The position numbers were made by a program, and so were the translations under genes. The notes under the pieces are model-generated. The model was not told the origin of the DNA. It searched no databases and saw nothing but the letters and a program-made list of their open reading frames with translations. DNA of 64,000 bases from a virus. Numbering within the stretch: position 1 is the stretch's first letter; every line of letters starts with the position of its first letter. Shown piece after piece: positions 9-21,115 of this stretch. The stretch is taken from positions 66,762 through 130,761 of the IMG/VR virus record IMGVR_UViG_3300045988_101135; one strand, written 5' to 3'.

Positions 9-3000
9 GTGTTTAAGGGGTTGGATGCAGAGGATATAGCAATGCAAGCATCAAATGATATTGCTGATTATGTAAATGACAATAATTTGTTTGATGATAT
101 AAATACGTTTTATTCATTATCAAGTCAAGCTTTTGATACAGCTAATCAGTTAAGGGAATTGCGTAATGAGATTAATGATCTGAATGCTGAAATAGAGAGG
201 TTGGCTACAACTCCGAGAAGAGTAGAGGATGGCAATGATACCGAAGCAGAGGCTATAAAACAAAAAACTATTAAATACGATAATCTTAATAAGGAATATA
301 GAAGGTTGTCAGAAGATCTTCTTAGTAGTTATAAAGAAGTATTTTATTCTTTTGATCCTGGAGTATTAGCTCTTGAGTTGTTTAAATCCGAAACAATAAC
401 TGCTGAAGATATATTGAAGGCTTATGACTCTGTAGCTTCTTTAAGTACTTATATTGAGAATAATAAAGGAAAGAAAGAAGCAGAGGATTTAAGAAATATG
501 GTGGTGAAATACCAGCAAGCCATTACCCAATATAAGGTTTTACGGTCATTTATGAACTCCATACAGGATAAGAAATTCATGAGACATGATTTTTCTTTAT
601 TTTCTAAGTTCTTAAATGATATGGTATCTTCTAATACTAAATCTATAGAAAGTGATCGTTTTTACCAGACAGAGGATAATAATATCAGTTTGGATGAAAA
701 AATAGATGAGCTTCTGAATAATGGAGAAATAAATTCAGATGAAGCATTTACCATGAAAGTATTTGGTCATCTAAACGATGGTATAACTCAGAAGCCGAAA
801 GAAGATATATTGTCTGATTTTGATTATGAGTCGGCAATGGAAGATCTTTTGTCTGCACCTATAGAGGTTAAAGAACGTATCGTAGATAAGATATATACAG
901 GTAATCAAGATCTTTTATCTCCAAGGGAGAAGGAGATATATGAAAAGTATAAACAGGATATTGATGATTATATATCAAATCTTGGTGATAGTCCGGCTAA
1001 GATGATAAAAGATTTATCAGATAAAGTTAGGAGACTTACTGAACCTCGATCTGTGTATGAGGATAATAAAGCTATTATTGATATGGCTAAATCCAATTTA
1101 GAACCAGATCAAAGGAAGGAACTTGATGATGCTATTTCTTCGTATGTTGATATAATGAACAGACGGGATAAAGGGGAGAAGGTTGACGAAGATAAGCTTG
1201 CTGATTCGGTATTTACCATAGAAGATCTTGGTCAGGTTGGAAACATCACAGATCTCCTTCCTTATATTGAACAAAACAGGATTATTGACAAAGGTCGTAT
1301 TTCCGAATCTACGTTAAGTAATTTTGGGGAGGATGATGCTAATATAGATTCTCTTGTAAATGAATTAGACGAATCTGATAATACACCTGGAGCTAACATA
1401 GATAGTGCCCAGAATCCAGAGACGTTGATGGTAAGAAGAATCTCCAATGATGGCAACGAAAGGTATGAAATTGCGGGTCTTAGAGCTGATAAATTTATAT
1501 CTTCTATAAAATCATTGGTTCCTATTCAAATAAGCTCTGAAACGAACGCTAATGGTACTAAAAGGTATTCTCTTAACATAGGTGGAGAAACGGCTACTAT
1601 AATTGAACTGCCTTATCATGCGAGATGGTCTATAGACAAAGAATCGGCTCGTGTTCTTAACCGTTACACAGACGTGTCTATTCAGGACGTGGGTAATTCC
1701 TATTCTTTGGTTTATAAGCGTCTTGATTCAGATGAGTTGGTTCCGTACAGAACGGGTGTTGGATTCGGAGAGAATGAGGTAGATAAAATAGATCAGGAAG
1801 CATTATCTTCTTTGAAAAAAGGAGATAAGGTTAATCTCGAAATAGATGTAAATGATACTTATAATCAGTCTCTTTTTACCGAATACAATGACGCTGTTCA
1901 GTCCGGCGATAAAAAAAGAATAGAATCTGCTGAGAATAAACTGGTGTCCAATATGGTTATCAAGGTCATGAGTGGGAACAGATTCGTTTCTGTTGTAAAA
2001 GCTGATACAGGAGGCATAGATGGTATAAGTAAAATAAGAAGAACGGCTTTTAACAAGTGGAAGAAGGACGCCGGCCGGTCGGCTACCATCGGCGTCGGCA
2101 CGCATGTTGTTGCCCAGACCCTTCCTGGAAGACCGGTGTTTAACATGAGAGTAAACGGTCAAGGATATGGTCAGGTAGAAAATCTCCCTATTACCGAAAA
2201 AGGTGCTGAAAAAGTATCTGATGTTGGATATGTATTAAATGGCAAAGTCGTGCTTAAGAACGGATCTAAATACACAGGCTTCCCATTTGCTTATTCTATA
2301 TTAAATGACAAGGGGAATAATTACAAAAATGTAAGAGTTCCGGTAGTCGTCATCAAAGGTAAAAACGGTCTTAATTATCTTTTCCCAGTTAGCCTACGTT
2401 CTGTAGAATCAGAGGAAGGGCAGAAATGGATGTCTTTTATAGATACGCTGCTTGAATCTGGTGATTCTGAATTGCTACAGATGGGTCAAGATGACATACA
2501 AGATCTTAATGCGTATCTAACCAAGTTAGGTCTTGATCCGGCTTCGTATCAAGTATCGTATTTGAATCCTATTTCAGGGCTTAGAAAAGCTCGTGAGGCT
2601 ATAGAAAAATTATCTACGGTTCCTGATGTTGTTAAGTGGGTAGAAGATGGAAGTAGGAGCGTGAAAGACATTGTGACGTCTGAAGTAGAATCTGGAATAG
2701 ATTTCGAAGGTGAGATGTTTGTCGCTCCTAAGATCAGGATTCAGTTTGGCAAATCATCTTCCAGGCCTAAATCGCTTATAGAGGATGATCTTCCTTTCTC
2801 TGATGAGGGTAAGACCGTTACTTCTAAGGTAGAAGATGTGGAAGTTTATGAAGAGGAAATGCCAGAGGAAGGGGCTGCCCGGGAGACTCAGCCGGCGCCA
2901 TTAGCTCAGCCGGCTCCTGCGGCACAAGCTACGCAGTCTTTACCTGGCAAGAAGCGTACCTCCAGGAAAAACTTCTCTCTTATGTTAAACGAAATAGAAT

Positions 3001-4580
3001 CTCATATAGAAAAAGAAGGATTGCCGTCTTATGCTAATATTTTTGATTTTATAGCAAGGAAGATTGTAGGAGGTGATTTGAGGTTTCTTCGTGAGAGAGG
3101 TAATCCTAAAAGCCTTAAGGAAGAAATGGGATTAGAACCTAAAGGAACAGTAGGTGATAAAATATCCACTCCTTCCAGTAAAGGTGGTAAGACCTTAGAA
3201 GAATACGTTTCTTGGCTTCGTTCTCAAACAGATCAGGTGGTGGTTGATTATGTTGGGCCAAGATCTGACGAACAAATTATATCAGAGTTGAAAAACTTTT
3301 TGAAATATATTAATTTTGTTCCAAGCAAGGCTTTGAATTATTCTCTTAGAGTCAATGGCATGGATACCCTAAAAGAATATGGCACAAAAGAGGAAGTAGA
3401 AAAAATGGAATCTGATATCAATAGTTTGGTTTCTAAAGTTTTGCCTACGGTGGACAACCAAACTATAGAAGATGTTTCTACTGCAATAAAATCAAACAAC
3501 TTGCCTGCCATATGGGAGCCCGTGGAAAGCCTTGATATGACAAACGAGGAAAAAATAGAGTTTTTGAATAACGTAGCAGATTTCCTTAGCGGCATACCAG
3601 AGTATGATGCTGTCGTGGAGTCTATAGAGTCAGAATCAGATAATATTTTAAATGATGGAAAAGAAGGAAGTGCAGAAGGCGGTGCAGTACGCACTGAGGA
3701 AGATGGCGATAAAAAGGGAGATGGAGAAGGCAAAGGACAATCCAGAACAAATGTCGAAGTTAAAGGAAATATCGAATTACCTGGATATGAAGAAGGAAGA
3801 GTAGATAACTATAGGAAGAACGGAGATAAGTTCTCTGACATTGCTGAAGTCACTTTATGGCTACTTAGAAGGGCTGCCGGCATAACCTCTATCCCGGAAG
3901 GAGAAGAGGTTTATGTAGAGGGAGATGAGGTTAATAGTATTATGACCGATATGGAATCAAGGTATGGTATAGACACCATCAATCACTCGCATACGACTAA
4001 GGTTATAAGGGATCTTAACGGCGTATCAGGTTATAAAGTAGAATACGGCTTAACCTTTTTGACATACGATCCTTTTATTAGGATATCCAATCCAAGGGAA
4101 GAATATAAGGCTGCGAAAGACGAGCCTCGTATATCCGAAGAACCTCTTACTCACATATCAAGGGTGACAACCCCTTATTTCCTGTACGGCGGTGATGAAG
4201 CATATACATCTGTTCCGGCTAAGGTAGAACCTATACCGGAGAAGATAATGGGTCGTAATGGCATTAAATTTGGTATGAGTGTAGTCGAGTTAACCAAATT
4301 AGGGTACAAAAAAGCTGGTGGAAACTGGATATATAAATTCTATATGAACTCAGGTGTGTATGATTTGTATAATATCAGTACCGGTGAAGCGTTTAGGGCA
4401 AAACCGGATCTTGGAGTTAAGATAAGTTCCAGTGCATTCATCCGCTCTTTATCTCAATCTGGTAGAAAAATACAAAATATGATGAGTAATATGAGCCAGG
4501 AAGAGATAGATAGGAATAAGAATCTCGTAGAAGGTTCTGATAATTCGGATTCGATAAATGAGTTAAATAAGGAGTGTTGA
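9..4580 (+). CDS. giant hypothetical protein, N-terminally truncated by window edge (>=1523 aa)
   Basis: Uninterrupted ORF; frame is open upstream to position 3 so the true start lies outside the window. Pro/Ala-rich linker (PAPLAQPAPAAQ). No catalytic motif recognised. Confidence 0.7.
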   Translation: MFKGLDAEDIAMQASNDIADYVNDNNLFDDINTFYSLSSQAFDTANQLRELRNEINDLNAEIERLATTPRRVEDGNDTEAEAIKQKTIKYDNLNKEYRRLSEDLLSSYKEVFYSFDPGVLALELFKSETITAEDILKAYDSVASLSTYIENNKGKKEAEDLRNMVVKYQQAITQYKVLRSFMNSIQDKKFMRHDFSLFSKFLNDMVSSNTKSIESDRFYQTEDNNISLDEKIDELLNNGEINSDEAFTMKVFGHLNDGITQKPKEDILSDFDYESAMEDLLSAPIEVKERIVDKIYTGNQDLLSPREKEIYEKYKQDIDDYISNLGDSPAKMIKDLSDKVRRLTEPRSVYEDNKAIIDMAKSNLEPDQRKELDDAISSYVDIMNRRDKGEKVDEDKLADSVFTIEDLGQVGNITDLLPYIEQNRIIDKGRISESTLSNFGEDDANIDSLVNELDESDNTPGANIDSAQNPETLMVRRISNDGNERYEIAGLRADKFISSIKSLVPIQISSETNANGTKRYSLNIGGETATIIELPYHARWSIDKESARVLNRYTDVSIQDVGNSYSLVYKRLDSDELVPYRTGVGFGENEVDKIDQEALSSLKKGDKVNLEIDVNDTYNQSLFTEYNDAVQSGDKKRIESAENKLVSNMVIKVMSGNRFVSVVKADTGGIDGISKIRRTAFNKWKKDAGRSATIGVGTHVVAQTLPGRPVFNMRVNGQGYGQVENLPITEKGAEKVSDVGYVLNGKVVLKNGSKYTGFPFAYSILNDKGNNYKNVRVPVVVIKGKNGLNYLFPVSLRSVESEEGQKWMSFIDTLLESGDSELLQMGQDDIQDLNAYLTKLGLDPASYQVSYLNPISGLRKAREAIEKLSTVPDVVKWVEDGSRSVKDIVTSEVESGIDFEGEMFVAPKIRIQFGKSSSRPKSLIEDDLPFSDEGKTVTSKVEDVEVYEEEMPEEGAARETQPAPLAQPAPAAQATQSLPGKKRTSRKNFSLMLNEIESHIEKEGLPSYANIFDFIARKIVGGDLRFLRERGNPKSLKEEMGLEPKGTVGDKISTPSSKGGKTLEEYVSWLRSQTDQVVVDYVGPRSDEQIISELKNFLKYINFVPSKALNYSLRVNGMDTLKEYGTKEEVEKMESDINSLVSKVLPTVDNQTIEDVSTAIKSNNLPAIWEPVESLDMTNEEKIEFLNNVADFLSGIPEYDAVVESIESESDNILNDGKEGSAEGGAVRTEEDGDKKGDGEGKGQSRTNVEVKGNIELPGYEEGRVDNYRKNGDKFSDIAEVTLWLLRRAAGITSIPEGEEVYVEGDEVNSIMTDMESRYGIDTINHSHTTKVIRDLNGVSGYKVEYGLTFLTYDPFIRISNPREEYKAAKDEPRISEEPLTHISRVTTPYFLYGGDEAYTSVPAKVEPIPEKIMGRNGIKFGMSVVELTKLGYKKAGGNWIYKFYMNSGVYDLYNISTGEAFRAKPDLGVKISSSAFIRSLSQSGRKIQNMMSNMSQEEIDRNKNLVEGSDNSDSINELNKEC

Positions 4581-5139: not shown

Positions 5140-7398
5140 ATGGGTGTCAAATGTCAGATAGAAAAAAAGGAAAATGAAATAAAACGGGTTAAGGCTCCTA
5201 ACGGGGAGCCTTCCGTTCTTTACGAAAGTGCTTTAAAAGTATTAGGAAACAGCGAGCGGGCCCTTCAGGTATGGGCTAAGGCTTACACTCCTGGTTTTTT
5301 GTCGTATTACGGTCATTGGAACAACCCGGCTCCAGGGGAGATGTTTAACACCGATCCCAATGGCGAACCTCTTTTAGAAGACGTGCTGTCGTATATGAAG
5401 CGTCAGACTTATTTTGCTGATCCTTTAACGGCTCAGGATGTTAAGGATGTAAGGGATTTCCTTTTGTCTACTCATTATTTTTTCAATGCGTCTTCATTGT
5501 CTAATGCTATTCTCTTCGATTTTTATGTAGATGGCAGTTTGATACTGAATGAGCAGAAATTAAGGAGATCCGGTTTGTATGATGAAACAGAAATAAGTCG
5601 TATTTTATCCGATCCTTCTGTTTTAAACGAGGTTTCGACTTCCATGAGAAAGTTAATAGATTCTTCTATTAACGAACATGATAGGGAAAAAGATAATTAT
5701 TTTATGTCTATTGACTATCAGTATGGTCCTATTGTTTACAAGGAGGGAGTGTTTAACCAATTTGGTAAAAAAGTACCATATAATCCTTCTGAGCTTTATT
5801 ATGCTATGCGTAAAACAGTAGCCGGCATAAAAAACTTTTCTGAATTTTCATCTGCTTTTGAATCGTTGAGAAATTCATATCCTGAACTGGTTGAGAAATT
5901 CGTTTCTGATAAAGAATTTGCCGAATCTATGTTTGATGAGTTCTCATCTACGAATAAGATTCCGGTAATAAACATAGAAGGGGATGATGTGGTGGAAGGC
6001 AAGAGAAGATCTTTGTCTAAGCTACAAGATCTTTCTTATTACAATTCCGGCAAAATAGAGTTCCTAAGAGCTCGTATATCAGCTTATTTACATAGGGCTA
6101 ATGCCGACACCGAATCCGATTTAAGAAGCATGATATGGGATATAGAAGAGGCTTGTACGTGGTTTGGCATAGATATAATAGGGACATCGGAAACTTATGA
6201 TGGCACAGAAGAATCTTTGAATAAGATAGATAATTTGATGCTGGATCTTGATATTTATGTGGCCAGGCATAATGATGTAAATTATGCTCCAGCGCTGGCA
6301 TCTTCTATAGATGATGTTCTTGGTGATAGTACAGACTATTATTTTGGATTATTGCCGGAGTATATGGATAATTTGAATATCGTTTATTCTGAATCCGATA
6401 TAGACCCAGTAGAGGCATTTGAGAAACATTCATTGCTCAAGGTAGGAGATAATCTATATCAAAGGATCAGCAAAGATGATCTTAACGAGATGTATCAAAT
6501 ATCAACAGTATTAGCCAAGCACAACCTAACTCATTTTTCTACTAAAATATATCCTGAATCTTGTTTTAAGAACGGCGTTTTGGATAAAGAGAAAGTACGG
6601 AACGTAGATAATAATACGCTCATGGCTTCCATTAAAAAATACGTCAGATCGTTCATGGATTCTCAGAACACAGAGGACATGATAATGACCAGGATGGCGT
6701 TTGGGCACCCTGCGGTACTTGACGTTCCTTACGTGGATGTGGATCGGGAGTATAGTCGATACATGAACAAAAAACAAGATAGCGAAAACCCATTATCCTT
6801 ATTCGATTTATACCAATCTTACCTTGACAACAAACTCCATAAAACAAAATTATATGATAATGCCTATAAGTATCTTGACTTCAAACCTGGTCCATCTTTG
6901 GGTCTTATTTCTGATGATCCTGATATTTTGAAATCAATAGAATTATCTTTATCTGGAAAAGACAGGTTGATGTTGTTTGATTATAGCATGACCAGTACCG
7001 ACCCTTCTTTATCAGAATTGTTTTATTTGGAGAGGTATGACCCTTCGTATGCTGGGAATGATTTTGAACACTATTTTTACACCAGGCACCCGTATTTGTT
7101 AAAAGAAAAATCGGGTTCTAATATCGTAGAGCAAGATGGTGTTATAACAGCAGAAGGTATTTATGATAATTTTATAAGAGTAGGTAATAAGATATGGTCT
7201 AAAGTAAGCGAGAGTAGTTCCGGCTCTATCTACCAAAATCTAACAGGAACCGAATCGGAGGTGAAATACGATTCTACTCAGAAGGCTAAGACGGTAGAAA
7301 CCGATTACGCTCCATACCAAAACAGATCTGGCTTGACGCAAGATATGACCGTAAGCAAGTCTGAATTGGATGATCTTAATAAATTGGAATGCAAATAA
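5140..7398 (+). CDS. hypothetical protein (752 aa)
   Basis: Long ORF co-oriented with the giant ORFs; no recognisable domain. Confidence 0.65.
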   Translation: MGVKCQIEKKENEIKRVKAPNGEPSVLYESALKVLGNSERALQVWAKAYTPGFLSYYGHWNNPAPGEMFNTDPNGEPLLEDVLSYMKRQTYFADPLTAQDVKDVRDFLLSTHYFFNASSLSNAILFDFYVDGSLILNEQKLRRSGLYDETEISRILSDPSVLNEVSTSMRKLIDSSINEHDREKDNYFMSIDYQYGPIVYKEGVFNQFGKKVPYNPSELYYAMRKTVAGIKNFSEFSSAFESLRNSYPELVEKFVSDKEFAESMFDEFSSTNKIPVINIEGDDVVEGKRRSLSKLQDLSYYNSGKIEFLRARISAYLHRANADTESDLRSMIWDIEEACTWFGIDIIGTSETYDGTEESLNKIDNLMLDLDIYVARHNDVNYAPALASSIDDVLGDSTDYYFGLLPEYMDNLNIVYSESDIDPVEAFEKHSLLKVGDNLYQRISKDDLNEMYQISTVLAKHNLTHFSTKIYPESCFKNGVLDKEKVRNVDNNTLMASIKKYVRSFMDSQNTEDMIMTRMAFGHPAVLDVPYVDVDREYSRYMNKKQDSENPLSLFDLYQSYLDNKLHKTKLYDNAYKYLDFKPGPSLGLISDDPDILKSIELSLSGKDRLMLFDYSMTSTDPSLSELFYLERYDPSYAGNDFEHYFYTRHPYLLKEKSGSNIVEQDGVITAEGIYDNFIRVGNKIWSKVSESSSGSIYQNLTGTESEVKYDSTQKAKTVETDYAPYQNRSGLTQDMTVSKSELDDLNKLECK

Positions 7399-10150: not shown

Positions 10151-10519
10151 ATGATAGTATATGATTTAAATTCAGGACACAGAGAATATCCTGGATATGA
10201 CGAGATAGAAGACAGACGAGGTGGAGGCAGAGGCAGAAGCCGGCGTTCTGATGGGACGTACATGGGGTACGGTGGTGGTATTTACGACCATTACGGTATG
10301 CATGAGAAGATGAAGGAAATGGAAGAACGCGAAAACGAGCTGGAAGAAAGGGAAAGAAGGCTTGAAGAGCGCGAACGTCGTCATGAAATGGAGGACCGGG
10401 AATACCGGAGGATGGGTTACGAATCCTACCCGACCGATTACTATGGAGACGACAGATACTACGGTGACGGACCTCAGATGCGTAGAGGTCGCGGACGTGG
10501 CAGAGGTCGTTCTTATTGA
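10151..10519 (+). CDS. RG/RGG- and Glu/Arg-repeat protein (122 aa)
   Basis: GGGRGRSRR at the N-terminus, an EERENELEERERRLEERERRHE repeat, and RRGRGRGRGRSY at the C-terminus; resembles disordered nucleic-acid-binding proteins. Confidence 0.45.
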   Translation: MIVYDLNSGHREYPGYDEIEDRRGGGRGRSRRSDGTYMGYGGGIYDHYGMHEKMKEMEERENELEERERRLEERERRHEMEDREYRRMGYESYPTDYYGDDRYYGDGPQMRRGRGRGRGRSY

Positions 10520-10906: not shown

Positions 10907-11270
10907 GATCCAGATCCAGGTCCTTCCGGTGGTGCGGGAGCCATAGTAAAAAATATGATTCCCGCATTCCCGTTTTTCCCGTTTGGAAAAAAAGGAATAA
11001 AAATATTATACCGGTCGGCGGGCAATAGAATACCCGTGGCCGGTTTGTTTCACATAACTTTTTTTGGGATATGAATATAGCACACGAATCTAAATCGAAT
11101 AAAACCCCATTGTATTTAATAGGAGAGTTGATTGGCGTACCGAATACGGTTATGGACTCAGCATTGCATGAACTGAAAGATAGAATAGACAAAGACCCTA
11201 AATATAAAGATGTTAAAAATTGGCTCGAATCTTTACCCAAGATCTGAACCTATTTTTTTTCAATACCAGG

Positions 11271-11305
11271 CCCGATGCGATTTTAACGTATCGGGTTTTT
11301 ATTTT
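11271..11305 (+). terminator. hairpin cccgat-13nt-atcggg followed by tttttatttt
   Basis: 6-bp GC-rich stem plus T tract in the intergenic region 10907-11375. Confidence 0.4.
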
Positions 11306-11375
11306 AATTCATATTGTTTTATTTTAAATCTAATTAATTCATGAATGTCGTACTTTTGTTGAAAAAGTATTCTAT

Positions 11376-11603
11376 ATGGAAAATAAGGAAGATTACGTTG
11401 GTTACGAGGATCAAGAACTGTGTAACCGGTATTACAAAGAGGCTGAAGCCATGAGGCAAAAGCAGGACTGGTCTCGGCTTAGGGCTGTCCCTGCTCCGGC
11501 CAAGGGAACGCCATCGCCCGGCTGGGGTCAGCTTGGACGTGGAAATGATGTCCGTGTTAAGTATGTTAGCATCAATTCAGGATTAGGAGGAGATAGGTTA
11601 TGA
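11376..11603 (+). CDS. hypothetical small protein (75 aa)
   Basis: ORF overlapping the next ORF by 4 nt (ATGA-type coupling). Confidence 0.35.
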   Translation: MENKEDYVGYEDQELCNRYYKEAEAMRQKQDWSRLRAVPAPAKGTPSPGWGQLGRGNDVRVKYVSINSGLGGDRL

Positions 11604-11815
11604 CTGTAGAAGAATTGGCTAATAAAAGATACGGTGGCGAATTTGTTTTCATGTTTGGTCATCTTGAAGGTAGAACAAGATTCGTTTTTGAATGCTTTGA
11701 TCCCAGACCTGATCACGAAGGTAAAAACACTTATATGGTTTCCTATTTTGATAAGGGACTTCGTAGAAGAGATGTGGTAGATGTGCCGTGTTATATGAAT
11801 ATTTTGCCAAAATAA
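11600..11815 (+). CDS. hypothetical small protein (71 aa)
   Basis: Translationally coupled small ORF. Confidence 0.35.
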   Translation: MTVEELANKRYGGEFVFMFGHLEGRTRFVFECFDPRPDHEGKNTYMVSYFDKGLRRRDVVDVPCYMNILPK

Positions 11816-12018
11816 TGGAAACATTAATCTTAGATGTACCTGTATTTTCCGGTAAGATTATTTCTCCTATCTGGATTAAAGCCGTAAGAGATTTTCAATC
11901 CAAATCGAAGACAGAAAGAGACTCGTATTGTTTGATTTGTGGATGTACAGGAGGGTGTAACTTGTGCGATGATATAAGTAAATATAGGATTTCAGAACAA
12001 TTAAAATATTACAAATAA
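11788..12018 (+). CDS. hypothetical Cys-containing small protein (76 aa)
   Basis: ORF with CLICGCTGGCNLC. Confidence 0.35.
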   Translation: MLYEYFAKIMETLILDVPVFSGKIISPIWIKAVRDFQSKSKTERDSYCLICGCTGGCNLCDDISKYRISEQLKYYK

Positions 12019-12749
12019 TGGAATTAAAAGATTCAGTCAGGGTAATGACTAAAGAAGAGTTCGAATCAGCAATCAACGAAGATATTAAATTCGTTGAAGG
12101 AATTAAGCATTTTTTTAAACATGATGATGCTACGAGGGTAATGGAACACGTAAAGTCCGTGTTAGAGGCATCAGTAGACTACCACTACCCGAATCATCCT
12201 GAACCTGAAGCAGAACCTGGAGACATGGGAGAGGTTTCTGATGGATACCATACTTTCAATGAATTGTATCGGTACCGCATGTTGTATAATGCCGCCTTCT
12301 TTAATCTATTAGCCAGAAACGGACAGGTTGAAGTTTGCAAATCAAGGAGACACAGCGATGGAGAAAAATGCTTCGGTTCTGATGATTGGTTTATTGTGAT
12401 GGCGATCCTACCTACCGGTCAGGTATCTAATCACTATGAAAGCAAATACTGGGATTTGTTTGATGTTCCTGAAAGAGAAACCGCTTTCGAATACGATGGC
12501 CATACACCAAATGAAGCCTCCGACAGACTTGAAAAGTATCTCAAACTGCCTCGTCATGGCATGACATTCGAACAGGCTTTAGAACGGCTTAAATTAGGTC
12601 GTAAGATAAAAAGAATCGATTGGGGTAAAAAGTATATCTGTATGTTTGACGTAAATATATTGATGATAGATACAGGTCAAAAAGTAGCATCAAATTGGAA
12701 TCCAACCGAACATGATATTATGTCTAATGACTGGGAGATTGCGGGATGA
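12018..12749 (+). CDS. protein with C-terminal DUF2829 (Tad2-like) domain
   Basis: The last ~60 aa read MTFEQALERLKLGRKIKRIDWGKKY...NWNPTEHDIMSNDWEI. This matches the F-x-EAL-x2-LK-x-G-KK-V-R-x-x-W ... D-W-E signature of the DUF2829/Tad2 family. The N-terminal 180 aa are unassigned. Confidence 0.5.
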   Translation: MELKDSVRVMTKEEFESAINEDIKFVEGIKHFFKHDDATRVMEHVKSVLEASVDYHYPNHPEPEAEPGDMGEVSDGYHTFNELYRYRMLYNAAFFNLLARNGQVEVCKSRRHSDGEKCFGSDDWFIVMAILPTGQVSNHYESKYWDLFDVPERETAFEYDGHTPNEASDRLEKYLKLPRHGMTFEQALERLKLGRKIKRIDWGKKYICMFDVNILMIDTGQKVASNWNPTEHDIMSNDWEIAG

Positions 12750-13021
12750 GTTTGTTTGTTTGTTCAAAATGTGGCTGTATAGATAATACAGCCACATCCT
12801 GTTATTGGGCTCTTATAAGACCTTGTAAGAATCGTATTTACGATAAGTCGCTAAAGGGATATGAAGGCAAGCCTCTTTGTTCTGAATGTGCCGCTATTGA
12901 ATATAGTAAGGGAGACGAAGTGGTGGTAGTTCCTGGAACGTGGCATGGTAAGTTCAAGAAAGAATGGCCTACTGAAGAAGAGAAGAAGCATATTGGTAAA
13001 AACGGTATTTTAAATATGTAA
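12746..13021 (+). CDS. Cys-rich zinc-ribbon-like small protein (91 aa)
   Basis: CSKCGC...C...C...CSEC pattern. Confidence 0.4.
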   Translation: MSLFVCSKCGCIDNTATSCYWALIRPCKNRIYDKSLKGYEGKPLCSECAAIEYSKGDEVVVVPGTWHGKFKKEWPTEEEKKHIGKNGILNM

Positions 13022-13024
13022 ATT

Positions 13025-13330
13025 ATGTGTGATAAGGAAATTGTTGTATGCGCAGCTATATGGGTTCAAGATCACAAGAACAAGCCTCACGGTCCAGTAA
13101 ACATACCATCCGGAACCGTATTTTGTGGATTGAGACATTGTTCTATCATTTCTCAGTTTGCAGCTTATGGTATTGCTCATAAAAACCGCAGTGTTCAAGG
13201 ATTTTTGACAAGCAAGAATCGGTTTCTAACAAGAGAGGAGGCATCTGCTCTTGTTAAGAGCAATAATCAGGAAATGGTAGTAGATAGGAGTGCCATTAGA
13301 GAACAATTGTATTCAGAAGATCTATATTAA
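13025..13330 (+). CDS. hypothetical protein (101 aa)
   Basis: ORF; contains conserved-looking VFCGLRH and GFLTSKNRFLTREEA motifs of unknown family. Confidence 0.45.
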   Translation: MCDKEIVVCAAIWVQDHKNKPHGPVNIPSGTVFCGLRHCSIISQFAAYGIAHKNRSVQGFLTSKNRFLTREEASALVKSNNQEMVVDRSAIREQLYSEDLY

Positions 13331-13347
13331 CTAAAAAACAAAACAAC

Positions 13348-13701
13348 ATGGGGTTTAAAATCAAAAAGTCAATCACTTATGATATGATGGACGACAGTCG
13401 GGTAGAGTACGAATTTGATAATACCAATGATTTAAATCATATCATATTTAAAGGTAATTGTAGAGAACCTTTTTCATTCAGCAGAGTACTTGTTGAAGAA
13501 TTAATTAAGACATTTGAAACCATACGGGATAGATACTCTGATAATTATGAACTTAAGGTCTATCTTTACAATTGTATAATTCAACTGAGCGTAAATCCAA
13601 AGGATCCCAGTGAATCCTTTTTTGGCGTATATGATAGAGATGAGATGAAATTGATATACGGAATAAAGATCAGTATTCTGAAAGGAATGTTTGGCATATG
13701 A
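13348..13701 (+). CDS. hypothetical protein (117 aa)
   Basis: ORF in the array. Confidence 0.45.
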   Translation: MGFKIKKSITYDMMDDSRVEYEFDNTNDLNHIIFKGNCREPFSFSRVLVEELIKTFETIRDRYSDNYELKVYLYNCIIQLSVNPKDPSESFFGVYDRDEMKLIYGIKISILKGMFGI

Positions 13702-14015
13702 TGACTAAACAAGATATACAAGCAGCAGCATCGTATGTTTTCCGAAGCAGTTTTGTCTCGGAGGACCAGACAAGGAAAACAATGGTAAAAGCCGGCAATA
13801 ACGCTACCAAGATCCTCGTCAAGACCTTTAGAGGCAAATTGTTCAAGAAAGCTTTTGAAAGAGCCCGTAGAGGAAAGGATATCAGTTCTTTTGAAAGACA
13901 GGAAAAAGAAAGTGGTTTCAATTTTCTTTACAATCCTAATAATGGTCGTATGCAAAGCGGTCATATTATAATAGATGGAATTGGTCTGTTTAAACAAATA
14001 ATTCATGAAAGGTAA
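13698..14015 (+). CDS. hypothetical basic protein (105 aa)
   Basis: ORF overlapping the previous ORF by 4 nt. Confidence 0.4.
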   Translation: MMTKQDIQAAASYVFRSSFVSEDQTRKTMVKAGNNATKILVKTFRGKLFKKAFERARRGKDISSFERQEKESGFNFLYNPNNGRMQSGHIIIDGIGLFKQIIHER

Positions 14016-14692: not shown

Positions 14693-17600
14693 ATGGTATC
14701 AACGTGTATTATTAAAAGAGATAATAAAAAGAAAGTTGTTTCTGTCTCTACCAGATCAGGGGACAGGTCTATGTTGTTTGATAAGATAGCATCTATTCCT
14801 CTTATGGAGAACAGGGAACGGGCTACTACTGTTTTTAAAACCGTATTTTCTAATAAGTTCTTAAAGGATTTTGGCGACTGGAGAAAGAGAGTGCCTATCA
14901 ACAAACCGGCTTATAATAAGGTTAAATCCAACATTGATCTTATTCCGGAAGCTTATAGAGAAAGGGTACTGGATAAGGCTTCTAAGATGAGCAACCCTAT
15001 TCTTGTGTCAAAATCAGATGCACCTTATGGAATCCGAGAATCGGGCTTTGGATTCTACAGCCAAGATCTGGGTGATAATATTATGTTGGTGGATGCTATG
15101 GTTCCGTCAAGTATTTCCGTACCGGAAGGACCTGGAATAGACGCCGGGCAGTATTTACAAGATGCTATATCTTCGGACTTCACTCCCGTATCTATGGTAC
15201 AGGATAAGGGTGTTAATTATATGGTTATAAAAGACGGTCTTAAGATATTTAGCCCAGAAGAGTTACCACAGACAGATTCTAATCCTGTGGGTGTAACGTA
15301 TCATACTGGAGAGCCTCGTTTGTTTTTCATGAACGATCGTAGTCAATTATTTGAAGATTACGGAGAAGCTCTTCGCTCTGGAGGGAATGATATTAGAATA
15401 GGATTCTTATCCGGCACCGTTCAAGAATCTGCCGTGGATGGCGTGGCAGACATTACTTACAAGGCTGGAAAGTATGTTCTTAATAATCCCAAGTCTTTTA
15501 TACCGGTCATGACCGCTTCTGCTTCTACTTCTTTATCAACAAAAGGTGGTATAATTAACTACCTTATAAAGAAAGGTCTTTTGTCCGGATCCAAGATATT
15601 CGATCCGGAAACAAGAAGCTATTATATTACAGGAGAAGGACATACAGGACAAATTAGACTTTTCAATTCAGCCTTATCCTACACTGAGCTCCGTAATCAT
15701 TTTGGTTCCGATGTTTCCATGAACGACCAGGGTATGATAACCATAAATTCATTGGATAATAGTAAGGTAACTATGAGACTCGCCACCGGAGGAACAGAAA
15801 GAGTTAGCAAGGAGCAGATAAAGAGCGATCTTAAGTCTGGAAGATACAATGAATTGGATGCTAAATACGATCACTTTGATGCGCTTGTAGTTTCATTTAT
15901 ATTAGAAGACAATGATCTTTATGCTGATACTAAAGCTAAGATAGTATCGGATTATAGCCAAGAGGAACGTAATCAACGAAATTCTATTGTTGAGATACTG
16001 AAAACGCTGGGCGTTAGTGTCGTTGGCATGACCGATTATATAGAGAAGTACCAAACCAAATACGGGCACGAACCTTCTGCTAAGGCATTGGCGGATATTG
16101 CCAATAACGTAATAGCAGTTGGTGAAGATGCTACTTTATCTGATTTAGTAGAAGAAACAGCCCACTTCCTTGTAGAGGCATACAGAGATCAGAATGCTGT
16201 TGAGGCTGTTCTGCAAGATGTGGAAGGTACGGAAGAGTGGAACCAATATGCAGGTCAGTATTATAATACATACGGTAAAGTATATGAAGGCTCTGAACTT
16301 GATAATGCTGTTAGGAGAGAAATTCTTGGAAAGATCCTCGCCAGGGAGATGCAGACCGGCACAGCACAGGCGCCGGTAGAGCCCACCTCCTTCCTGGGGC
16401 GCGTCCGGCAGCTTTTCTCTGGAATCGTAAGCTGGCTTAAATCAGCTTTATCAACTCAAAGACAAGATTTGAATAACGTTATTAAAAACATTCGTGATCT
16501 TGCCATTACTGACATAGATAAAGGATTTGACACCTCTCTGTTAAAGGATAATGACTTTACATTATACTCCCTTTCTTCTATGAACAAGAACAAGTTTCTT
16601 GAGTCTAAGATCCTGGCATTAAGGAAAACATTAAGAGACTTACGTCAGATAAGCTCTGATAGGGCTGTAACTACGTCTATGACCCTTGCTCAGCTTAAGA
16701 CCATAGAAGATAAGATAAATAAGGTAGAGACCGAAATAGACAAGAATGAGATGGCGGCTGCCATGAACAGCATGATCTCTACAGCCGAAGCTCAGGTCAG
16801 ATACTTAAGCAATGTGGTGAACACCATCCTTCATGGTGATACCAAAGACGGTAAGCTTCACTTCAATACCAATGATCGAAAGAACGTAGATATTATCAAC
16901 AATCAGGTTCTTCCGATCATGAACGATCTTCGAGGATATATCCGTAACAGAAGTACCGAATTTGATGAACGTGAAAAGCAGGATTATACAAATAGGATCA
17001 ATACCGTCATTGCCGACATCAATGGTATTCAGTCTGATATTAAATCAGTACAAGACCTTGATGAAAGTACGTTGCTTGATAAGTTAATGAACGAACTTCA
17101 TGTGCCGGCAGATAAGGTAAAGAGAGTAAAAGAATTTTTCGACAAGGTTCAACACGATGTTTCTTGGATAAGTAGGTGGTTCGGTATATTAGAGCATTCT
17201 TCCAGTCCGTTCAATAACGCTCTTGGAGCTATGATTGCCAAAGACAATTACAATGCGATGGTGAATGCCCAGCCCGCCATATCCGATTTCCTGGCATATG
17301 CGAAAAAGCATGGTTTTAACAAATCTGAATTTGAAAAACTGCTTCAGAAAGTAGACGGCAAAACTTCTAATTACCTTCGTAGTGCTCTTGATATGGCTAA
17401 ATACGATCGTAATAAGAAGCTGGCGCAGATGCGAGCGTTTGCGACTGCCATGAACATAGAGATATCAGAAGAAGAAATTGGTGATGTGGTTGACAATAAC
17501 CGTAATTACGTATTTAAAAGAGAAGTAGTTGACAAGGATGGAAATACGGTTACTGAAAACGCTAAATTCAAACCATCGTCTGATAGGGTTAATACCGATA

Positions 17601-20600
17601 TTTTTACCATCGAGCAGGAAAAGATCTATACAGAGCAGATGGAAAAGTGGGATGCTGAAAATTCGGAACTGGAATTTAGCGAAAGTTATGCCACAAGAAT
17701 GGAATCCATATACAAAAAGGCTGAAGAAGAATTAGGGTATCCGGTTTCTCAAACAACCAAAGAATATCTTAATGCCCTATCCCGGCAAAAACGGATATTG
17801 AGGCAGCCTTTTATTGATAGCGGTGGTAATTTTGATGAGGTTGCCTATTTTAAAAGCAGCAATTACGAAGAAGAAGGACTGCTTCGTAAACAACGTAAGG
17901 AAGCAGCTTCAGAATACATATATGTAGGAACCAGGAGAGTGGAAAAAACCGGCGACCAACTTAAGATGGCCAAAGAAATACAAGCTATAAATGAAGTTTG
18001 GAGAAAGGAATCAAATAATGCCACTAATGCCGTATCAGAATCGTTTTTGCAAAAATTAAGAACGATTCAGAGCGAGTCTGGAGGAGAAGCTGCGCTGAAG
18101 ACACTTATGTTGGGAGGTCACCTGTCATTCAACGATCGGTTTTGGAATGATGTAGAATCAGAACAGTCGGCACGTACCGAATCAAATAACAAGGCTTCGT
18201 ATCTTAAAATGGCGCATGATATCATTAGTTCTACGACAAGTGATAGAGATGCGACTGACGTGGATTCTATTGTGAAAGATATAGAAAAAAATAAGGCTAT
18301 TATCAAGGAAATAATCGGAAACAATCGCGATGTGGCTGATATCGGAGAAATTAACGAAGCGACATTTACCTCATCCGAAAGAGATGCTTTTAGGGCCGCA
18401 TCTGAAGCTATTGAAGCCGATTACGCTATTTTGATAGATTATGCTAAGATGGTGGGTCTTGAAGATATTGATAAGTACCTTACTAAAAGCAGTAAGGCTG
18501 AAAACGAAGTAAATCAGTCTTATTTAAATGCTCTTGCTGACTCCAAGGAAGTGGAATGGAAGTTCGTACAACGTCATACTACGGCGAAGAAAGCAAAAAG
18601 GATTCAGGCTTTAAGGGATAAGCTGTTTAAGGCTGCTGATAACCGATATCTGTTTACCGTATCTGAAACCAACTACCTGTCAGAAAAGCTTGGTATAAGC
18701 AAAGAATTAGACGGTAGAGATTTCAGGAATGCTGTTAATGCTAAGATGGCCAGCTTATTTTTAAATAATACAAGAGAAGAGGGCGTAGAAGAAGCTAATG
18801 CTATTGTTAATGAATTTGCCAGAAGCCAGGTTTTTTCGTACTATAAACGCATGGCGCCTACCGGATATGCAGCTATGATCGACAAAATCGGTCGAGGTGA
18901 GATAGATGTGGCGCAAATGGTTAAGGACGTACAAAACGGTACATCCACCCAAGATTATGGCATGGACATATCGTACTTGTCTTTCGACCCTGCAAGGGCA
19001 TGGGTGGCTGAATCTGAAGCCGAAAATAGCGGTCGTAATCCTGATTATGTAAAAGATCATGGGTATGGTCATCGAATGCCTAAGAAAAGCCTGTATCGTG
19101 ACGAATCGTATTTCAATGACTTTGGTATCAAGTATGATGCTGACGGTAATGAGGTTGCTACTAAAAACGTAGAGCAGTGGAATATGATTCAAAAACTCAA
19201 GGAAATAAAAAGACAATCCCTTGATCTATACAAAGAGCAGAGCCCGAACCTGTATGCTATTCCACAGATATCCAAACAAGATATAGAACGTGTAGAAGGA
19301 TTGGGTATTAACTTCAAAAATACGGTTCGTAATTTTGTATCAGATCTGTGCCTGGACAGAGTAGACGATTCTCTATATGGTAAGACCAGGCAAGGAGAAG
19401 TGTATGATCCAGAAGACAGGCTTAGGTCTATACCTAAATACTACATATATGAATTGGAGAACCAAGATGATGTATCTCACGATTTTGGCTACTCTTATTC
19501 GATGCTTATGATGCAATCATCGTTATACAACGAAAAGCAGAAGTCTATAGAGCTTGCCCAAGGACTGGAGCAGATGTTACTAAATAAACAATTTGAAGGT
19601 GGTAAAAAGGCTGAAGCAACCCAAGCATATCAGATGTTCAGGGACTTCTTCAACGATCATTATTATGGCATTAGGATGAACACCAAAAAACTTACGGTGA
19701 ACATCGGAGGATATACGGTAGACCTTACAAGAATTATGATGGCTGTTGAAAGATTTATGTCGGTTATGAACTTGGCACTGTCTCCGTTTGTGGCAGCTAC
19801 CGGCGCCCTGACAGGCCATATCAACCTCATCATGGAATCAGCCGTAGGACAGTATATAAGCAAAGATTCCCTTAAATACGCATCGGCTGAGTTTTCCCGT
19901 CTTGCGCCATCTTGTATAGCAGAAACCGGAGACATAGATAGGAAAAGCAAATTATATGTCATAGGTGAGAGAATGGGGATATTCAATATCCGAAATCGTA
20001 TGTATGGTGCCGGATACAATAGAGCGGCCAGGACCTTAATGCGTTCGCCTATGTATGCTTTTATGGAAATCCTGAACTACCCTCTTGATCCGCAGGTTAT
20101 GATTGCTACTATGGACAATGTTCGTTATTACAAAGGCCGGTTCTACACGTTCCAAGATTTCAAGATGGAAAAAGAACGCAATAAAGAACAGAGTACCATA
20201 AAAAGAGAATGGAACGCATTAAAAGATCGTACTTTATGGAGTATGGTAGACGTCGTGGATGGAAAGGTGGTTGTAAAGCCGGGATCGGGTGTTACTGTTG
20301 AGGAAGTTGAAACCCAGATGGCTATAACCAGGAATCAAGTCCGTAGCTTGTCGCAGATATGTAACGGATCTTTGAATGAAGAAAACCGAACTGCCGCATC
20401 GCGCAACTGGATAGCCAGGTTCATGACCGCCCACCGAGGATGGTTGGTGCTGGCGGCTCAACGTCTGTGGAAAAGACGTGGCTTCAATTTCCAGACAATG
20501 CAAGAAGAGGAAGGGTTGTCAATTACGTTAAAGAATATGATAGCCAAAACATTTAGCTTAGCTTCCGAGTCTGGTATGAAAAACATCATAGATGCCTGGA

Positions 20601-21115
20601 ACGAAAATAAAGACAATATGAATGAGGTAGAGAAAACCAATATAAAACGTCTCAGTGTCTATGCCGGCACGTTCCTTATCATGCAAGCCGTATCCATGCT
20701 TCTTGCCGGATGGCGTGATGATGATGAAAACGAAGAAAGTTGGCTTACTCAATTTGGATCCTATGTCGGATTCAGAACCATAAACGAAATAGCTTCACAG
20801 ATGCCGTTTATTATGGAGCTTAACGTGGTAGATATCATTAACGATCCGTTTGTTATGGGGCGAAAACTGAAGGATCTTACCGATCTTAGGAATTATTCAC
20901 TTGATAAAGTAACATCCGGTACATACAAGGGAGAGTCTAAGTTATTTAGGCAACTCGCCAAACAGACGTTTATCAAACAATGGTATAATATCAAGACGCC
21001 GGAAGACGTAGCGCGTGCCTATAACTGGTGGCAGCAGACGAACAACAAGTCAATGATGTTTTTCATCGGTGCCACTCCTGATTCAGAAGGAGACGATGAT
21101 GTGAGCTACAAGTAG
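14693..21115 (+). CDS. giant hypothetical protein (2140 aa)
   Basis: 6.4-kb uninterrupted ORF bracketed by terminators. No DxDGD, Walker or other catalytic motif recognised by eye. An alternative start at 14771 (MLFDK) is possible. Confidence 0.8.
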   Translation: MVSTCIIKRDNKKKVVSVSTRSGDRSMLFDKIASIPLMENRERATTVFKTVFSNKFLKDFGDWRKRVPINKPAYNKVKSNIDLIPEAYRERVLDKASKMSNPILVSKSDAPYGIRESGFGFYSQDLGDNIMLVDAMVPSSISVPEGPGIDAGQYLQDAISSDFTPVSMVQDKGVNYMVIKDGLKIFSPEELPQTDSNPVGVTYHTGEPRLFFMNDRSQLFEDYGEALRSGGNDIRIGFLSGTVQESAVDGVADITYKAGKYVLNNPKSFIPVMTASASTSLSTKGGIINYLIKKGLLSGSKIFDPETRSYYITGEGHTGQIRLFNSALSYTELRNHFGSDVSMNDQGMITINSLDNSKVTMRLATGGTERVSKEQIKSDLKSGRYNELDAKYDHFDALVVSFILEDNDLYADTKAKIVSDYSQEERNQRNSIVEILKTLGVSVVGMTDYIEKYQTKYGHEPSAKALADIANNVIAVGEDATLSDLVEETAHFLVEAYRDQNAVEAVLQDVEGTEEWNQYAGQYYNTYGKVYEGSELDNAVRREILGKILAREMQTGTAQAPVEPTSFLGRVRQLFSGIVSWLKSALSTQRQDLNNVIKNIRDLAITDIDKGFDTSLLKDNDFTLYSLSSMNKNKFLESKILALRKTLRDLRQISSDRAVTTSMTLAQLKTIEDKINKVETEIDKNEMAAAMNSMISTAEAQVRYLSNVVNTILHGDTKDGKLHFNTNDRKNVDIINNQVLPIMNDLRGYIRNRSTEFDEREKQDYTNRINTVIADINGIQSDIKSVQDLDESTLLDKLMNELHVPADKVKRVKEFFDKVQHDVSWISRWFGILEHSSSPFNNALGAMIAKDNYNAMVNAQPAISDFLAYAKKHGFNKSEFEKLLQKVDGKTSNYLRSALDMAKYDRNKKLAQMRAFATAMNIEISEEEIGDVVDNNRNYVFKREVVDKDGNTVTENAKFKPSSDRVNTDIFTIEQEKIYTEQMEKWDAENSELEFSESYATRMESIYKKAEEELGYPVSQTTKEYLNALSRQKRILRQPFIDSGGNFDEVAYFKSSNYEEEGLLRKQRKEAASEYIYVGTRRVEKTGDQLKMAKEIQAINEVWRKESNNATNAVSESFLQKLRTIQSESGGEAALKTLMLGGHLSFNDRFWNDVESEQSARTESNNKASYLKMAHDIISSTTSDRDATDVDSIVKDIEKNKAIIKEIIGNNRDVADIGEINEATFTSSERDAFRAASEAIEADYAILIDYAKMVGLEDIDKYLTKSSKAENEVNQSYLNALADSKEVEWKFVQRHTTAKKAKRIQALRDKLFKAADNRYLFTVSETNYLSEKLGISKELDGRDFRNAVNAKMASLFLNNTREEGVEEANAIVNEFARSQVFSYYKRMAPTGYAAMIDKIGRGEIDVAQMVKDVQNGTSTQDYGMDISYLSFDPARAWVAESEAENSGRNPDYVKDHGYGHRMPKKSLYRDESYFNDFGIKYDADGNEVATKNVEQWNMIQKLKEIKRQSLDLYKEQSPNLYAIPQISKQDIERVEGLGINFKNTVRNFVSDLCLDRVDDSLYGKTRQGEVYDPEDRLRSIPKYYIYELENQDDVSHDFGYSYSMLMMQSSLYNEKQKSIELAQGLEQMLLNKQFEGGKKAEATQAYQMFRDFFNDHYYGIRMNTKKLTVNIGGYTVDLTRIMMAVERFMSVMNLALSPFVAATGALTGHINLIMESAVGQYISKDSLKYASAEFSRLAPSCIAETGDIDRKSKLYVIGERMGIFNIRNRMYGAGYNRAARTLMRSPMYAFMEILNYPLDPQVMIATMDNVRYYKGRFYTFQDFKMEKERNKEQSTIKREWNALKDRTLWSMVDVVDGKVVVKPGSGVTVEEVETQMAITRNQVRSLSQICNGSLNEENRTAASRNWIARFMTAHRGWLVLAAQRLWKRRGFNFQTMQEEEGLSITLKNMIAKTFSLASESGMKNIIDAWNENKDNMNEVEKTNIKRLSVYAGTFLIMQAVSMLLAGWRDDDENEESWLTQFGSYVGFRTINEIASQMPFIMELNVVDIINDPFVMGRKLKDLTDLRNYSLDKVTSGTYKGESKLFRQLAKQTFIKQWYNIKTPEDVARAYNWWQQTNNKSMMFFIGATPDSEGDDDVSYK

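Follow-up and report, generated by a model that had tools for sequence, protein, structure and literature searches.

An exchangeable minimal Tad2-like module joined to the WDGH domain in a candidate phage counter-defense protein

Sponge proteins are a main route by which phages blind signaling-based immunity such as Thoeris, CBASS, and Pycsar, and the Tad2 sponge family includes inhibitors of CBASS, of Pycsar, and of types I, II, and IV of Thoeris. Tad2 also occurs in published sponge-sponge fusions, including Acb4-Tad2 of Pasteurella phage Pm86 and Tad2-Sequestin, and Sequestin (PF21825), a sponge for 3' cyclic ADP-ribose (3'cADPR), was itself discovered via its frequent fusion to Tad2 and Acb4 (Tal et al., bioRxiv 10.1101/2025.07.12.664507). 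Here we describe a related fusion gene in a 64,000-nucleotide stretch of viral DNA (IMG/VR record IMGVR_UViG_3300045988_101135, positions 66,762 to 130,761; hereafter the window, with positions counted from its first base). The gene joins a minimal Tad2-like domain to a second conserved phage domain, WDGH, and we lean, somewhat beyond even odds, toward a modular phage accessory protein whose likeliest role is counter-defense.

12018..12749, plus strand: complete open reading frame (ORF) encoding a helical hairpin, a WDGH domain, and a minimal Tad2-like domain (ORF list, translation)

Parts of this picture were already available. Positions 11000-14000 of the window are 93.5% identical to phage csAssE-Sib (OR575929.1; 151 kb, human gut), whose homolog carries the GenBank annotation "protein of unknown function (DUF2829)," and fusions of Tad2 are a published theme. 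What is new is a Tad2 allele without the usual insertion, documented in-place swapping, splitting, and loss of the Tad2 cassette in crAss-like phages, and the finding that two known sponge families recur as fusion partners of WDGH. A natural 62-residue Tad2 core would reveal which parts of the fold are needed for oligomerization and ligand capture, and the in-place exchange of sponge alleles between near-identical human-gut crAss-like phages directly attests to an arms race acting on this gene.

The minimal Tad2-like module and its solved relatives

The initial annotation had placed a DUF2829 signature at the C terminus of the ORF, and that signature is real, since residues 182-241 match the Pfam Tad2-like family PF11195 (E=5.6e-11) at 43.3 bits, above the gathering score of 25. 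Only 60 residues of the module span positions 1-72 of the 73-position profile. From a 26-sequence alignment, AlphaFold2 predicted residues 182-243 with a predicted local distance difference test (pLDDT) score of ~90 as alpha1, beta1-beta4, a short helix, and beta5; this model and that of the WDGH domain are both of monomers. The module model adopts the Tad2 fold, as the initial annotation had anticipated, superposing on solved sponges at 1.2 Å with top structural matches that are all nucleotide sponges. Every element named in the SPO1 Tad2 pocket for the cyclic ADP-ribose signal gcADPR (the beta1-beta2 loop, beta3-beta4 loop, beta4, and alpha3) is present in the model.

12561..12746, plus strand: minimal Tad2-like domain (PF11195), residues 182-243, without the beta2-beta3 insertion (Pfam, AlphaFold2)
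12621..12632, plus strand: beta1-beta2 loop W202-G-K-K, counterpart of the WNGK loop (HMMER alignments)
12696..12716, plus strand: W227-N-P-T230-E-H232-D233, aligned to HgmTad2 W87-L-A-S90-Q-T92-D93 and SPO1 W73-V-P-S-Q-T-D (alignments)

Residue-level comparisons with Tad2 rest on HMMER alignments to solved Tad2 chains. SPO1 Tad2 (Gp34.65; structures 8sme, 8smf, and 8smg), the founding Thoeris anti-defense 2 sponge, holds gcADPR with both of its tryptophans, W25 and W73, contributed by both protomers. It shares PF11195, the same core fold, and the motifs F-x-x-A-L-x-x-L-K-x-G, R-x-x-W, W-x-P-[ST]-x-x-D, and D-W-x-I with the window module, although the two sequences match weakly (E=0.003 with the full-length protein, 2.4e-5 with the domain alone). 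W202 aligns with SPO1 W25 and HgmTad2 W21, W227 with SPO1 W73 and HgmTad2 W87, D233 with HgmTad2 D93, and T230 with HgmTad2 S90. Across 26 fusion homologs, W202, P229, D233, D238, and W239 are invariant, and W227 is kept in at least 90%.

The differences lie in the insertion and in the contacts. SPO1 Tad2 is a stand-alone protein of 89 residues that forms a homotetramer and has, between beta2 and beta3, an insertion of 24 residues (36-59) including helix alpha2, whereas the window copy is a 62-residue C-terminal domain in which D211-V212 are the only residues between beta2 and beta3 and both insertion and helix are absent. The spacing between the two tryptophan motifs is accordingly short, 20 residues in the window against 24-55 in other alleles and, counted from published numbering, ~43 in SPO1 Tad2 and 61 in HgmTad2. 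SPO1 Tad2 has WNGK in the loop and a threonine before the aspartate, while the window has WGKK and a histidine. ModTad2 (9eib), a sponge for His-ADPR and for cUMP/cCMP, retains WNGK and P-S-x-S-D, unlike the window module, and is a stand-alone tetramer in which the post-beta2 insertion builds extra pockets.

HgmTad2 (also AcrIIA7; 8kbi), from human-gut Bacteroides phages, allows the contacts to be compared one by one. Its N22 and G23 bind the diphosphate, and W21A/N22A and S90A/T92A/D93A mutants weaken gcADPR binding; two of the six mutated positions differ in the window, N22 becoming G and T92 becoming H. The WNGK loop shared by SPO1 Tad2, ModTad2, and HgmTad2 thus reads W-G-K-K, which also changes G23 to K, and H232 occupies the position of T92, the adenine contact. 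Within the contact motif S-x-[TS]-D (HgmTad2 S90, T92, and D93), now T230-E-H232-D233, the change from S to T is conservative, that from T to H is not, and the aspartate is kept. The second HgmTad2 pocket, which holds the cyclic dinucleotides cGG and cGAMP, is formed by a 41-residue insertion and is impossible in the window allele.

Judged by its sequence and modeled fold, the window module is a true Tad2 domain, minimal and divergent, and the smallest version seen. The canonical cyclic-dinucleotide pocket is excluded, and a gcADPR-type pocket would be possible only if oligomerization is retained. The initial annotation of a Tad2-like sponge therefore stands for the domain, the fold, and the retained W202, W227, and D233, but sponge activity cannot be assumed for a module that lacks the insertion and has two changed contacts.

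We propose that the minimal module would still sequester a nucleotide-derived immune signal of the host, most likely an ADP-ribose-type product of a TIR protein. The ligand would lie between W202 and W227 of neighboring protomers, where its ribose and phosphate would be contacted by D233 and the basic WGKK loop. Specificity would be altered from that of canonical Tad2, with no second (cyclic-dinucleotide) pocket; such a change is plausible because Tad2 members already act against CBASS, Pycsar, and three types of Thoeris. All known sponges require oligomerization; here it would have to rely on alpha1 and beta2 alone or on N-terminal parts of the protein. By analogy, the gut setting fits a counter-defense function, as HgmTad2 is reported from phages of Bacteroides, in which CBASS signals with cGG.

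The WDGH domain, a second and much more widespread component

The initial annotation had treated the first 180 residues as one domain of unknown identity. They instead comprise a two-helix hairpin (residues ~10-57) and, after an acidic, proline-rich linker, a WDGH domain at residues 71-173 that matches PF25311 at E=4.5e-36 (123.5 bits; gathering score, 27). The window protein contains SDGYHTFNELYRYR and Y-D-G-H, so that it reads YDGH instead of WDGH. With a deeper alignment, AlphaFold2 modeled residues 71-170 at a pLDDT of 95-98 as a long helix followed by a sheet of three to four strands and then two helices. A search of BFVD for fold relatives returned WDGH family members only.

12228..12536, plus strand: WDGH domain (PF25311), residues 71-173, the constant core of the protein family (Pfam)
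12045..12188, plus strand: two-helix N-terminal hairpin, residues ~10-57 (AlphaFold2)

Among 1.84 billion representative proteins scanned, WDGH matched 3,709 at E<=1e-3 and 383 at E<=1e-30, and the best-listed matches nearly all align over residues ~60-180 with 55-75% identity, in proteins of 140-640 residues. The domain was also found by tblastn in 197 sequenced phage genomes, where every copy is annotated as hypothetical; their hosts are Listeria (54), Bacillus (45), Salmonella (34), Streptococcus (13), Lactococcus (13), Klebsiella (8), and others. Cultured-phage proteins are 37-43% identical to the window domain, with Pfam E values of 1e-40 to 1e-45. Twenty residues are invariant in gut-phage and cultured-phage copies: S74, D75, G76, H78, T79, F80, E82, L83, Y84, and R87, followed by S109, H112, G115, G134, H139, E152, D160, G161, H162, and R170. 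Conservation of four His, two Asp, two Glu, and two Arg throughout the family suggests a catalytic or metal/ligand site.

Three cultured phages illustrate where the gene resides. Listeria phage A511 gp21 is a nearly bare WDGH domain of 115 residues that stands alone among small genes, Salmonella phage ST64T Orf-186 lies between the coat gene and gene 4, and Bacillus phage vB_BanS_Nate gp134 overlaps the start of a NADAR-domain gene, gp135, by 56 nucleotides (L004 2848-4048; NADAR Pfam E=2.8e-39). All three share the S-D-G-x-H-T-F-x-E-L-Y-x-x-R and D-G-H motifs with the window protein but differ in having no Tad2 module; in ST64T Orf-186 and Nate gp134, WDGH is preceded by 52-62 residues in which no Pfam domain is found, whereas A511 gp21 adds almost none. 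These are positions typical of accessory genes, and the ST64T site, which is not a core P22 head gene, is probably a "moron" insertion. NADAR domains act on ADP-ribose adducts, and the overlap in Nate is one isolated hint that the context of WDGH may be related to ADP-ribose.

The WDGH domain would represent an independent second activity beside the Tad2 module. An enzyme or tight binder, acting in host takeover or immune evasion, is favored because the invariant His/Asp/Glu/Arg set resembles a catalytic or metal site more than a scaffold. The domain is an anti-defense lead because it is fused to Tad2-like domains, and to Sequestin plus Tad2-like domains, in many gut phages, the same fusion reasoning that led to Sequestin; without such partners, it is found in phages of Listeria, Bacillus, Salmonella (P22-like), Lactococcus, Streptococcus, and Klebsiella. 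Like Acb4-Tad2 and Tad2-Sequestin, the window protein combines Tad2 with another phage accessory domain in one polypeptide; the partners in those published fusions were known or later shown to be sponges, whereas WDGH is larger (~100 residues), alpha/beta, and apparently enzyme-like in its invariant residues. We put forward only tentatively, on the strength of this conservation and analogy, that WDGH could be a new, very widespread phage domain family that manipulates host immune signaling. Under that proposal, enzymatic cleavage or modification of a nucleotide signal or NAD-derived metabolite seems more likely than passive sequestration. If it is correct, the window protein would be a two-activity weapon, an enzyme with a swappable minimal sponge cassette, and with copies in the 197 phage genomes and thousands of metagenomic protein clusters, WDGH is a testable candidate counter-defense domain.

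Identity of WDGH with Lockin or Acb5 (Tal et al.) is unlikely given their described folds, sizes, and phage distributions, a comparison made by description only. One BFVD entry with the WDGH fold, A0A8S5SHC1 (Myoviridae sp. ctuIn11), is named "DUF551 domain-containing protein," a naming from which WDGH may also be fused to DUF551, a small phage C-terminal domain.

The hairpin upstream of WDGH (helices at residues 12-30 and 36-56; pLDDT, 70-82) differs between relatives and matches no Pfam family. A divergent Sequestin was ruled out (no PF21825 match at E<=1; hhalign probability of 0.2% against the Sequestin segments of relatives P0111 and P0114-P0119), and a copy of the "WSEEDE...WLKSLK" repeat that flanks WDGH in other proteins was not supported (probability, 10%). 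The "MKKYIGTKQ..." N termini of relatives were considered as Acb4 (PF13876), for which Pfam gave no match at E<=1. Separately, one protein bearing the WSEEDE repeat (representatives P0130-P0262) weakly matched a Myb-like Pfam family.

Exchange, splitting, and loss of the Tad2 cassette

Searching 5.8 billion proteins with the window protein gave 2,125 matches. Among the best 120 of these, most combine WDGH with a Tad2-like domain and fall into >100 protein clusters; other architectures are WDGH alone, Bro-N+WDGH+Tad2, and WDGH+Tad2+PF21825. The initial annotation was thus right that the module ends a longer, 243-residue protein, but the arrangement is not unusual given these clusters and the published Tad2 fusions. 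One triple fusion, P0117, consists of an N-terminal region, WDGH (residues 67-167; E=1.4e-36), Sequestin (177-238; E=8.9e-14), and Tad2 (250-345; E=4.4e-19), and occurs on a separate set of phage contigs, the two that were read being ~38-40 kb.

Within the fusion family WDGH is near constant, while the Tad2 part takes the form of distinct alleles, listed here by beta1-beta2 loop, spacer between tryptophan motifs, and C-terminal motif.

Window type: loop WGKK, spacer of 20 residues (shortest seen), motif NWNPTEHD
csAssE-Sib type: loop WGKK, spacer of 24 residues, motif NWNPTEHD
P0013 type: loop WKNE, spacer of 31 residues, motif SWNPSIED
P0030 type: loop WGGK, spacer of 24 residues, motif EWIPSYND
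P0069 type: loop WNDK, spacer of 26 residues, motif KWNPSLRD
Canonical HgmTad2-like: loop WNGK, spacer of 55 residues, motif SWVPSISD

Alleles vary at ligand-contact positions (GKK, KNE, GGK, NDK, or NGK in the loop; H, E, N, R, or S before the aspartate) and keep the scaffold W, P, D, and D-W. Variation at contacts on a retained scaffold is the pattern that would be expected if specificity were diversifying.

Alleles are also exchanged in place. The gene for P0013 lies at the same syntenic position on a 157.7-kb contig (L011), and its product is 100% identical to the window protein in the N terminus, 98% in WDGH, and 39% in the Tad2 module. DNA identity is 98-100% over 11780-12500, falls to 34-72% over 12500-12740, and returns to 92-100% over 12740-12980, with breakpoints at the domain boundary. 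The difference between the two loci is a clean replacement of the linker and Tad2 module.

12500..12740, plus strand: replaceable cassette of linker plus Tad2 module (sliding identity on a MAFFT alignment against L011)

Other relatives show the two domains parting company. At locus L008 the N terminus and WDGH (window positions ~12018-12528) are precisely deleted, leaving Tad2 as a 66-residue ORF that starts at M182 between unchanged flanking genes, and the window-type minimal module is a stand-alone ORF of 62-66 residues in P0265, P0266, and L008; its presence alone at the same locus means that it is kept without the rest of the protein. At L007 a frameshift after DGHTP yields a WDGH ORF and an overlapping Tad2 ORF. 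P0124 joins the hairpin straight to Tad2 with no WDGH, and P0264 and P0267 join the N terminus of an upstream 71-residue ORF (11600-11815) to Tad2. The reverse occurs in the P0028 lineage (L005), which retains WDGH at 99% identity but has lost the Tad2 module through conversion of codon 185 from GAA to TAA and rearrangement of the sequence downstream. Reassignment of TAG and TGA is known in crAss-like phages; an artifact of this kind was ruled out here, as the stop is a TAA derived from GAA and the downstream sequence also diverges. These fused, exchanged, split, lone, and lost states indicate that WDGH and Tad2 persist independently and that Tad2 behaves as a mobile cassette.

Several observations weigh against a counter-defense function for this protein. 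The missing insertion and the altered loop and adenine contacts occur in a family in which only ~1% of proteins are estimated to deviate at the gcADPR site (Li et al.), and the beta2-beta3 element forms the V-shaped dimer of SPO1 Tad2 and ModTad2 as well as the cyclic-dinucleotide pocket of HgmTad2. The Tad2 module is dispensable, because the P0028 lineage lost it and kept WDGH. Compared with csAssE-Sib, WDGH and the hairpin have ratios of nonsynonymous to synonymous substitution rates (dN/dS) of 0.06 and 0.18, respectively. In the Tad2 part, 4 nonsynonymous changes, no synonymous ones, and an indel of 4 codons were counted, which gives no evidence of purifying selection and is too few changes to interpret. 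A Tad2-like domain is found in 4 of 139 WDGH representatives and Sequestin in 1, and the remaining representatives are essentially without other Pfam domains; a few partners weakly match DNA-binding families (sigma-70 region 4, Myb-like, FaeA-like, and YccV-like), and repeats of ~45 residues, "WSEEDE...WLKSLK(D)R," occur once or more on either side of WDGH (31 of 235 flanks when a strict pattern is applied). No solved relative of WDGH turned up when the Protein Data Bank was searched with a sequence profile, and literature searches gave only irrelevant optical character recognition matches for "WDGH" and none for "PF25311."

One possibility, which we consider doubtful but worth weighing, is that the Tad2-like module is a decaying or repurposed remnant, for example an oligomerization or protein-binding tail, that sequesters nothing, with function residing in WDGH and not necessarily concerning immune signaling. 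The loss of insertion and alpha2, the two changed contacts, the nonsense mutation and rearrangement that removed the module beside a WDGH domain still 99% identical, the much tighter constraint on WDGH, and the 135 of 139 representatives that lack a Tad2-like domain would all suit such a remnant. However, the minimal module survives as an ORF of 62-66 residues after a clean deletion of N terminus and WDGH, and instead of merely decaying it is swapped for other Tad2 alleles that are intact. The stacking tryptophan pair and the aspartate are also invariant or nearly so across alleles only ~35-40% identical, and the confident model superposes closely on solved sponges. Even with an inactive module, the locus would be useful for showing how a domain of a sponge family decays.

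It is improbable that the protein is a phage DNA-binding or transcriptional regulator. PHROGs matched the window protein to families without an assigned function and, weakly, to phrog_643, "transcriptional regulator" (E=8e-5), at its C terminus; some WDGH proteins carry Bro-N or the weak DNA-binding matches noted above, and the csAssE-Sib neighborhood includes genes annotated "repressor" and "antirepressor." However, the phrog_643 match covers just residues 210-242, inside the Tad2 fold whose top structural matches are all nucleotide sponges, Pfam found no helix-turn-helix or other DNA-binding domain in the window protein, and the DNA-binding partners are single cases, mostly with E near 1e-3. 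Neither NCBIfam nor PADLOC-DB (anti-phage defense) profiles matched the window protein at E<=1.

Signs of further rearrangement were seen around the locus. Window positions ~11600-12750, together with loci L005-L008 and L011, form a hotspot of deletion joins, a frameshift split, and a nonsense codon. IS605-family TnpB genes (OrfB_IS605 plus Cas12f1-like TNB) are inserted nearby in relatives (L006 2894-4033 and L009 9994-11041), and one called protein, P0106, combines WDGH with a segment of PF07282. Rearrangements at the WDGH-Tad2 locus may be partly due to transposon activity.

The gene and its neighborhood

The ORF named in the initial annotation was recovered intact, encoding 243 residues from an ATG start to a TGA stop. 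Its start codon shares one base with the stop of the upstream ORF (TAATG), and its stop codon and the start codon of the next ORF downstream overlap as ATGA, junctions that suggest a single tightly packed operon of small genes.

11788..12018, plus strand: upstream 76-residue ORF, overlapping the start codon of the WDGH-Tad2 gene by one base
12746..13021, plus strand: downstream 91-residue CxxC...CxxC ORF, phrog_11861 (PHROGs match)

The CxxC...CxxC ORF follows the Tad2 module in all locus variants read (L006-L008 and L011), and its zinc-ribbon-like product may be functionally coupled to the Tad2 ORF. The window holds one copy of WDGH and one of the Tad2-like domain, with no second copy of either. 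Close homologs of the protein sit on metagenomic contigs of 90-165 kb, and a 97%-identical protein in BFVD, A0A8S5MGG0 (Podoviridae sp. ct1h53), is named merely "Uncharacterized protein." From the name, size, and source of csAssE-Sib, the phage is probably crAss-like.

The position of the gene bears on whether it encodes a module of a virion structural protein, which we regard as very unlikely. The gene lies ~2 kb upstream of a 2,140-residue virion structural protein (14693-21115, plus strand; phrog_37651, E=1e-76), and the ST64T homolog is inside a head-gene operon. However, no structural family was matched in Pfam, PHROGs, NCBIfam, or PADLOC, and the close neighbors are small uncharacterized ORFs (DUF7841, phrog_11861, and phrog_839), so the module does not behave as the routine part of a structural protein that the initial annotation had named as an alternative. 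The gene is also freely deleted, split, or swapped between near-identical phages, and the ST64T site is, as noted, outside the core P22 head genes. Very large ORFs flank the small-gene block, namely the 2,140-residue ORF and those at 9-4580 (1,523 residues) and 5140-7398 (752 residues); the latter two had no PHROG match.

Two further small ORFs of the window are notable. The first, at 13025-13330 (plus strand; 101 residues), matches phrog_839 and was negative in the Pfam scan, and the syntenic ORF in relatives bears the precomputed Pfam label PF26092, "T4_Y16D." Recent work has shown that Y16O, another T4 "Y16" ORF, is a Sequestin sponge, and because of this label and that finding the small-gene block may be an anti-defense island. 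The second, at 10151-10519 (plus strand; 122 residues), has RGG/RGR boxes at both ends and a central Glu/Arg repeat run (EERERRLEERERRHEMEDREYRR), with no Pfam match; its product looks like an RNA-binding or low-complexity protein, and L008 has a 122-residue ORF at the matching position.

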